64,000 bases of DNA from Bacteroidota bacterium (GTDB taxonomy: Bacteria; Bacteroidota; Ignavibacteria; UBA10030), in NCBI GenBank assembly GCA_041695085.1, contig JBGFRO010000047.1, positions 10,080-74,079 on the forward strand, read 5' to 3'. The position numbers were made by a program, and so were the translations under genes. The notes below the pieces were generated by a model. It saw nothing but the letters and a program-made list of their open reading frames with translations. It had not been told where the DNA came from and did not search any database. The stretch's first letter is position 1. The number at the start of each line of letters is the position of its first letter. This document shows positions 58,266 through 58,298 of this stretch, in pieces.

Positions 58266-58298
58266 CCAATCATAGGCCAATCATAGGCCAATCATAGG
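58266..58298. repeat. 11-bp tandem repeat CCAATCATAGG, 3 full copies plus a partial copy, abutting the RBS of the PDZ gene
   Basis: The sequence caat-CCAATCATAGG-CCAATCATAGG-CCAATCATAGG-agggtaggtcGTG was read directly. Confidence 0.9.

Follow-up and report, generated by a model that had tools for sequence, protein, structure and literature searches.

The array studied here lies just upstream of a gene for a putatively secreted PDZ protein, within a window (the whole stretch of DNA that was analysed) of 64 kb. The features of this gene and of its upstream region are as follows.

58165-58193, + strand: predicted ECF-sigma-type promoter, with -35 GGAAC at 58165-58169, a 16-nt spacer and -10 CGTCTATA at 58186-58193
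58199-58308, + strand: predicted 5' untranslated leader of about 110 nt, delimited by the promoter position and the conserved start codon
58255-58261, + strand: pyrimidine tract UCCUCUU, candidate anti-SD partner of AGGAGGG (RNAalifold, weak)
58266-58298, + strand: tandem array of CCAATCATAGG, 3.0 exact copies (Tandem Repeats Finder and sequence reading)
58266-58276, 58277-58287 and 58288-58298, + strand: the three units of the array
58275-58278 and 58286-58289, + strand: GGCC junctions between the units
58296-58302, + strand: Shine-Dalgarno (SD) sequence AGGAGGG, of which AGGAG is invariant in the aligned orthologous leaders
58309-59307, + strand: PDZ gene, 332 aa, GTG start (ORF, Pfam and PDB alignment)
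59376-59410, + strand: intrinsic-terminator-like hairpin (11 pairs, 59376-59402) with a T-run, which ends the PDZ transcription unit

The PDZ protein opens with a putative signal peptide, continues with two DegP/DegQ-like PDZ domains and has a charged tail at its C-terminus. The initial annotation had described it as a secreted tandem-PDZ protein. The tandem-PDZ part of this description is right, as the Pfam families PDZ_2, PDZ_6 and PDZ each match two stretches (there is in addition a weak PDZ_Tricorn match); the secreted part rests on a putative Sec signal peptide, MKRKLLFGVLVLSSMMMVGWTDHFAAA with the cleavage point before Q, which was read by eye and not by a tool and is conserved in the orthologues. 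Residues 33-245 align to DegP-like residues 267-473 in the PDB (E 5e-22). No protease domain was found, as Pfam returned PDZ families only and NCBIfam the PDZ part only; the NCBIfam protease models match over the PDZ parts and below their cutoffs, and the TIGR02037 match is partial. With respect to membership of the HtrA/DegP family, the protein has the tandem PDZ1-PDZ2 homology and lacks the trypsin-like protease domain. The sources of its homologues label them as proteins of Ignavibacteriales or Bacteroidota MAGs.

The genes and sites around the PDZ gene are the following.

53862-58085: hybrid histidine kinase with Reg_prop/Y_Y_Y domains, 1407 aa
59526-59541: sigma-54-type site TGGCACGTACCTTGCC, 38 nt before ATG 59580 of the PAS kinase/NtrC-like regulator operon
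59580-60989: PAS histidine kinase, ATG at 59580
60986-62359: sigma-54-dependent response regulator, NtrC-like
62555-62570: sigma-54-type site TGGCACATTCCTTGCA, before the HTH_8 gene
62610: small HTH_8 (Fis-like) gene
63355-63370: sigma-54-type site CGGCATATAACTTGCA, further downstream

In the syntenic loci of relatives that are described below, the TGGCACGTACCTTGCC site is retained, either unchanged or in the variant form TGGTACAC..GCTTGCC, in L005, L098, L099 and L102, the TGGCACATTCCTTGCA site is conserved with at most a change of the last base in L005, L097, L098 and L099, and the CGGCATATAACTTGCA site is conserved with two changes in L005. The arrangement suggests that a putative autoregulated sigma-54 two-component module adjoins the ECF-driven PDZ gene. 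A sigma-54 promoter for the PDZ gene itself was rejected, as there is no TGGCAC-N5-TTGC-like site in 58086-58308. An exact TGGCAC-N5-TTGCT match at 52101-52116 on the - strand, inside the fn3 gene, is probably due to chance. That gene encodes an fn3-repeat protein of 1578 aa with a T9SS sorting tail (49057-53793) and lies between an ECF sigma/anti-sigma pair and the PDZ gene.

Tandem Repeats Finder reported the array at 58266-58298 with period 11, 3.0 copies, 100% matches and a score of 66, which was the top score in the 64-kb window (remaining arrays, at most 44). Reading the sequence from 57700 to 58700 gave the local order cctcttcaat, then three copies of CCAATCATAGG, then agggtaggtc, then GTG. 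The 11-bp tandem repeat described by the initial annotation is real and exact, but the number of copies is 3.0 and not 3.4, because the preceding caat is out of register (in register these bases would be TAGG). This caat is part of an older CAATC-CAATC pentamer pair, which is also present in L005, a relative with one copy of the unit. Three exact adjacent copies would not arise by chance, because 22 bases must copy the preceding 11. The array is also not an assembly artefact, the identical 3-copy sequence being present in 7 contigs (6 from Logan runs, 1 from a JGI assembly). As the initial annotation had noted, the window holds no other copy: CCAATCATAGG was not found elsewhere in the 64 kb with 1 mismatch allowed. 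The unit was likewise not found at any other site among the 104 loci that were fetched. In a genome-wide leader repeat, one unit stands before many genes, and no second site of this kind was found in the 64 kb or in the 104 loci.

The CCAATCATAGG unit is partly palindromic (CCaATcATaGG), with 8 of its 11 positions self-complementary. Matches to the relaxed palindrome CCWATNATWGG are confined to the array (3 matches vs 0.11 expected), and pairing between the two GGCC junctions could give a small hairpin. There is no ATG, GTG or TTG on the + strand of the array. Since the unit length of 11 is not divisible by 3, the three units together give a TAG stop in every reading frame directly before the SD. 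A small ORF across the array was considered and rejected, as the 22-nt insertion shifts the frame and no + strand start codon lies within the array; a candidate leader uORF (MRMEKPRGLSPS, followed by a stop) was rejected as it is not conserved in L005.

The array had also been described as fused to the ribosome-binding site (RBS), and this is literally the case: its final AGG constitutes the first 3 nt of the SD AGGAGGG, which is located 6 nt 5' of the GTG start at 58309. Across all of the aligned orthologous leaders AGGAG is unchanged and lies 6-9 nt 5' of the start codon. SD-like motifs precede 8 of the 35 long ORFs (at least 200 aa) in the window, and are found at 7% of internal control positions. 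The genome makes little use of SD sequences, and against this background the strong, conserved AGGAGG before the PDZ gene is conspicuous. The public gene call, P0001 (318 aa), begins at the internal Met15, which makes window positions 58309-58353 a disputed N-terminus. GTG 58309 is supported as the probable true start by the conserved N-terminus MK(R/N)(K/R)..., by the conserved SD and by the ATG that L005 has at the equivalent codon.

Upstream of the leader, GGAAC and CGTCTATA are invariant blocks in an intergenic alignment of 5 species, and the 16-nt spacer between them is non-conserved. The motif GGAAC-N16/17-CGTCT(A), with a variable spacer, occurs upstream of the orthologue in 14 loci; it is found 74-187 nt 5' of the orthologue in the distant MAGs L009, L011, L012, L013 and L017 (the labels of these MAGs being WOR-3, Ignavibacteriota, Chitinophagaceae, Bacteroidota and Chromatiales), and also in L101-L104. 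By our own estimate, a 9-base motif with three spacings is expected by chance ~0.007 times per 650-nt region, and we therefore regard the recurrence of the motif as phylogenetic footprinting and not chance. Published ECF promoter elements consist of a -35 GGAACTT and a CGTC at -13..-10 (PMC3397946), and the candidate agrees with them in sequence, with GGAAC as its -35 and CGTC as its -10, separated by a 16-17-nt spacer. Setting this CGTC at -13..-10 would put the transcription start near 58199, so that the array would fall at roughly +68 to +100, in the transcribed leader rather than in the promoter. A consensus scan of 57500-59600 did not find a sigma-70-like promoter. No Rfam family was found at the locus (E <= 1), and the scan of the whole window returned only the tRNA gene at 28928-28999.

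An ECF sigma gene (47099-47692), followed by a zf-HC2 anti-sigma gene (47702-48784), lies 11 kb upstream of the PDZ gene. The GGAAC-N16-CGTC motif was not found before this sigma gene (47020-47098); autoregulation of the nearby sigma gene via the motif of the PDZ promoter was thus not seen, and there is no clear indication that its product is the sigma factor acting at the PDZ promoter.

We compared the array with the corresponding region of other genomes at three levels of relatedness. At the closest level, we examined 7 contigs from an exact-protein look-up (6 different Logan runs and 1 JGI assembly; 6 more similar places were listed). Each of the 7 carries the unit three times, and their intergenic regions are identical. 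Over as much as 7 kb they match the window at 100.000%, which indicates that they come from the same clone, and the constancy of the three copies among them therefore says little about variability.

The closest different relative has a protein, P0002, with 77% identity to the PDZ protein; its locus, L005, is syntenic and lies on a 314-kb JGI contig. L005 contains exactly one CCAATCATAGG (5956-5966), with the same flanks as in the window (ttcctcttcaat on one side and agggtaggtc on the other), followed by ATG. In pairwise alignment, window positions 58254-58308 and L005 are identical except for a clean 22-bp (two-unit) gap. Identity between the two is 52/75 upstream of the promoter, 29/31 in the promoter block and 46/57 (~19% different) in the 5' part of the leader. 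Thus a stretch of 33 nt with the ancestral unit at its core (58254-58265, one unit, and 58299-58308) is invariant between the window and L005, whereas the other intergenic sequence is 69-81% identical. Such invariance between sister species implies that the segment that was multiplied is under constraint. Further from the PDZ gene, positions 3436-4901 of L005, which correspond to 48786-57089 of the window, hold only fragments (fn3, 90 aa; HATPase, 150 aa; receiver, 151 aa), and this indicates apparent gene decay or deletion in the sister lineage, as against the intact fn3 protein and hybrid kinase of the window.

The third level comprised seven further syntenic loci (L097, L098, L099, L101, L102, L103 and L104, where L102 and L103 have the same protein), with protein identities of 51-67% and the same gene order wherever the contig reaches. 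The tandem repeat is absent in all seven, and their leaders are similar in length and end in TTCATAAGGAGAA..ATCGTG. Since L005 is single-copy and the seven outgroup loci are free of the repeat, one copy is the ancestral state and the lineage of the window has gained two units. The proposal in the initial annotation of a copy-number-variable spacer is therefore correct between lineages, the array having 3 copies in the window as against 1 in the sister lineage and being located between the predicted promoter and the RBS. Within the strain, all of the sequenced contigs, which are clonal, have 3 copies. A profile search of genome contigs with the protein alignment found no close relative (best identity 47%) and added 5 more distant orthologues that carry the ECF-type promoter motif. 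Eight metagenome contigs (L089-L096) that match CAATCATAGGAGGGTAGG were rejected as relatives because their flanks are entirely different. They share the 18-mer CAATCATAGGAGGGTAGG, and 7 of the 8 have a similar upstream sequence of ~70 nt (ctcttctctcaggcagcagctgctgtcaca...) and a start codon within a few bases 3', both of which are missing from L090. These contigs represent a different recurring element that has no relation to the PDZ locus.

We used RNA folding to determine what the extra units would do to the leader. The four other close species have tracts analogous to the pyrimidine tract UCCUCUU, 12-15 nt 5' of the SD; across the 5 species, RNAalifold predicted 6 pairs between tract and SD, with 0 compensatory changes and a consensus energy of -0.92 kcal/mol. 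Single folds were no more stable than those of shuffled sequences (z between -0.75 and +1). A UCCUCUU:AGGAGGG hairpin is therefore possible according to the folding models; as a regulatory hairpin that sequesters the SD, or as an RNA thermometer, it lacks statistical support, there being no covariation, no excess stability and no Rfam match. We then built leaders with 0-6 units in silico and computed their ensemble opening energies with ViennaRNA at 37 C; these energies are model output on a structure without statistical support, as its folds do not go beyond shuffles. For one to three copies the values were as follows.

1 copy: opening energy of 10.67 kcal/mol for SD to +13, and of 5.28 for the SD alone
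2 copies: opening energy of 9.94 kcal/mol for SD to +13, and of 3.06 for the SD alone
3 copies: opening energy of 10.16 kcal/mol for SD to +13, and of 5.71 for the SD alone

The predicted RBS opening energies for 1 and 3 copies thus differ by at most 0.5 kcal/mol, because the SD can also pair with codons 7-10. The model also predicted an alternation in the opening energy of the SD alone, from 5.3-5.7 kcal/mol with odd copy numbers to 2.7-3.1 kcal/mol with even ones (even numbers being ~2.5 easier to open). This is the result of the GGCC junctions pairing mutually and leaving one odd junction over. The suggestion that the repeat works by changing the promoter-to-RBS distance consequently finds no support: the distance is merely 5'-UTR length, and the predicted RBS opening energy is nearly equal for 1 and 3 copies.

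The reading that we consider probable is that the array is a young, lineage-specific tandem triplication in the 5' leader, which is neutral or mildly tunes translation. In this mechanism the PDZ gene would be monocistronic, driven by the ECF-sigma-type promoter about 100 nt upstream, and would end at its own terminator. The 11-nt segment between the pyrimidine tract and the SD would have been duplicated from 1 to 2 to 3 copies, presumably by this two-step route, with the addition of 22 nt. As the array would be copied into the mRNA at roughly +68 to +100, any effect would therefore be exerted on RNA. The extra copies would lengthen the leader and add two mutually pairing GGCC junctions, and the duplication would leave the SD, spacer and start codon intact. 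Since the predicted accessibility of the RBS is the same for 1 and 3 copies, the duplication is most likely neutral or slightly modulating; we infer its near-neutrality from the modeled energies. Its youth is suggested by the 0 substitutions among the copies, while the neighbouring leader differs by ~19% between species; this is consistent with a duplication that postdates the separation of the two species. The one-copy sequence is without microhomology at an 11-bp offset, so that the first duplication would not have been classic slippage. Tripling a constrained 33-nt segment might nevertheless not be innocuous. The feature, real but ordinary, adds one more case of a short tandem duplication within a bacterial leader.

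We considered what else the array could be. One alternative is that it was selected in this lineage as a translation-tuning element, in which a hairpin (58255-58261 with 58296-58302) sequesters the SD, and the triplication either enlarges the loop of this hairpin from 12 to 34 nt or gives an unstructured standby platform, altering the amount of PDZ protein made per transcript. We regard this as unlikely, though it has several points in its favour: a pyrimidine tract precedes the SD in all five close species and is paired with it by RNAalifold (6 pairs), the minimum-free-energy fold of the one-copy leader contains the SD hairpin, the 33-nt block is invariant between the sister species, and a strong SD is unusual in this genome (8/35 long ORFs vs 7% of control positions). 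Against it, the helix has 0 compensatory changes and a consensus energy of just -0.92 kcal/mol, the hairpins are no stabler than shuffles (z -0.75 to +1), and one and three copies differ in opening energy by at most 0.5 kcal/mol. Even less likely, in our judgement, is a wider version in which the 33-nt block is a genuine cis-regulatory element of the leader (for instance a place where a small RNA or a translational regulator docks, or the loop of a hairpin that masks the SD) whose core has been tripled, thereby rewiring translational control of an ECF-regulated envelope PDZ protein. If this were true, the predicted odd/even accessibility of the SD would make the gain or loss of a unit a graded switch. 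The initial annotation had raised the possibility of an iterated protein-binding site, i.e. that the 11-bp units are an operator or RNA motif at which a regulator or small RNA binds cooperatively and blocks transcription elongation or translation initiation. The period of about one helical turn, the self-complementarity of the unit (8/11), the restriction of CCWATNATWGG to the array (3 matches vs 0.11 expected) and the perfect conservation of the single unit in the sister species are consistent with such a site. However, there is one copy in L005 and none in the seven syntenic loci, which keep the promoter, the SD and the gene order; the rest of the window and the 104 loci give no other copy and hence no sign of a regulon motif; a position of +68 to +100 is atypical for operators; and palindromic pairing at 4 of 5 positions is not rare when all rotations of the repeat unit are counted. 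This makes the binding site a very unlikely explanation.

Two further explanations, both of which appear highly improbable to us, concern the way in which units are gained. In a phase-variable contingency locus, slipped-strand mispairing would frequently add or remove units and so switch PDZ expression among cells. The difference between 1 and 3 copies in related lineages fits this, the predicted odd/even alternation in SD opening means that single-unit changes could matter, and 5'-UTR repeat tracts control expression of Haemophilus hmw1A (PMC12721329). However, known systems have many more and shorter units, hmw having at least 11 heptamers in nature (PMC12721329), and the array has only three; every sequenced contig of the strain (6 runs and the JGI assembly, all clonal) has exactly 3 copies; and the gene product is of an envelope-quality-control type and not a surface antigen. 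The extra units could also have a non-slippage origin, as target-site duplications left by the insertion and excision of a mobile element. Some insertion-sequence families make target duplications of 9-12 bp, and the lack of microhomology at an 11-bp offset in the ancestral sequence would agree with this route, but in bacteria an excision seldom leaves both target copies in place, three copies need two successive insertion/excision events at the identical 11 bp, and there is no mobile-element remnant nearby. A young triplication in the leader is the explanation that we favour.

On this favoured explanation, the locus illustrates how a striking perfect repeat beside an RBS can be no more than a micro-duplication of recent date in a 5' UTR. 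The sister leaders, one with 1 copy and one with 3, form a natural pair for the effects of leader length and structure on translation. The widely conserved ECF-type promoter (GGAAC-N16-CGTCTA) would connect a DegP-like tandem-PDZ protein that has no protease domain with an extracytoplasmic stress regulon, and this link between promoter and PDZ protein spans uncultured MAGs labelled Ignavibacteriota, Bacteroidota, candidate division WOR-3, Chitinophagaceae and Chromatiales.

Simple-sequence-repeat contingency loci have many units, typically of 1-9 nt and often in more than 6-10 copies. The array, with three 11-nt units, is not a long many-unit tract of this kind. Judged by likeness, its nearest functional analogue is the (ATCTTTC)n heptamer tract in the 5' UTR of Haemophilus influenzae hmw1A/hmw2A (PMC12721329). 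Both would be repeats in a transcribed leader, between promoter and start, where copy number alters the length or structure of the leader. The hmw tract has at least 11 copies in nature, a 7-nt unit, variation in populations, RNase III processing and expression that is inverse to tract length (PMC12721329); the array, in contrast, has three 11-nt units, 3 copies in all contigs of one clonal strain, and no predicted effect. TAACTGA heptamer direct repeats are found just 5' of start codons in Beggiatoaceae, Cyanobacteria and some Bacteroidetes (PMC4679880). They resemble the array in consisting of two to six direct repeats that lie only a few nucleotides from the start codon, with a proposed post-transcriptional role (PMC4679880), but they occur at about 169 loci per genome and usually replace the canonical RBS (PMC4679880), whereas CCAATCATAGG is found at one locus and lies on a strong, conserved SD. 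Compared with boxes of the OmpR/PhoB type, the only trait that the array shares is 11-bp phasing (period 11, 3 copies), which puts the copies on the same helical face. Such boxes are direct repeats with 10-11-bp phasing that lie at the -35 or further upstream and are conserved among orthologous promoters, whereas the array is downstream of the predicted transcription start, single-copy in L005 and absent from the seven other loci. ROSE and fourU RNA thermometers are leader hairpins that sequester the SD, and the upstream pyrimidine tract of the PDZ leader can likewise pair with the SD; the difference is that covariation, excess stability and an Rfam match are lacking here. Finally, the E. coli degP/htrA promoter is dependent on sigma-E, an ECF sigma factor. 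The PDZ protein is unlike E. coli DegP in being without a protease domain, but the predicted arrangement, in which a periplasmic DegP-like PDZ protein lies behind a GGAAC...CGTC-type promoter (motif PMC3397946), resembles that of sigma-E and degP.
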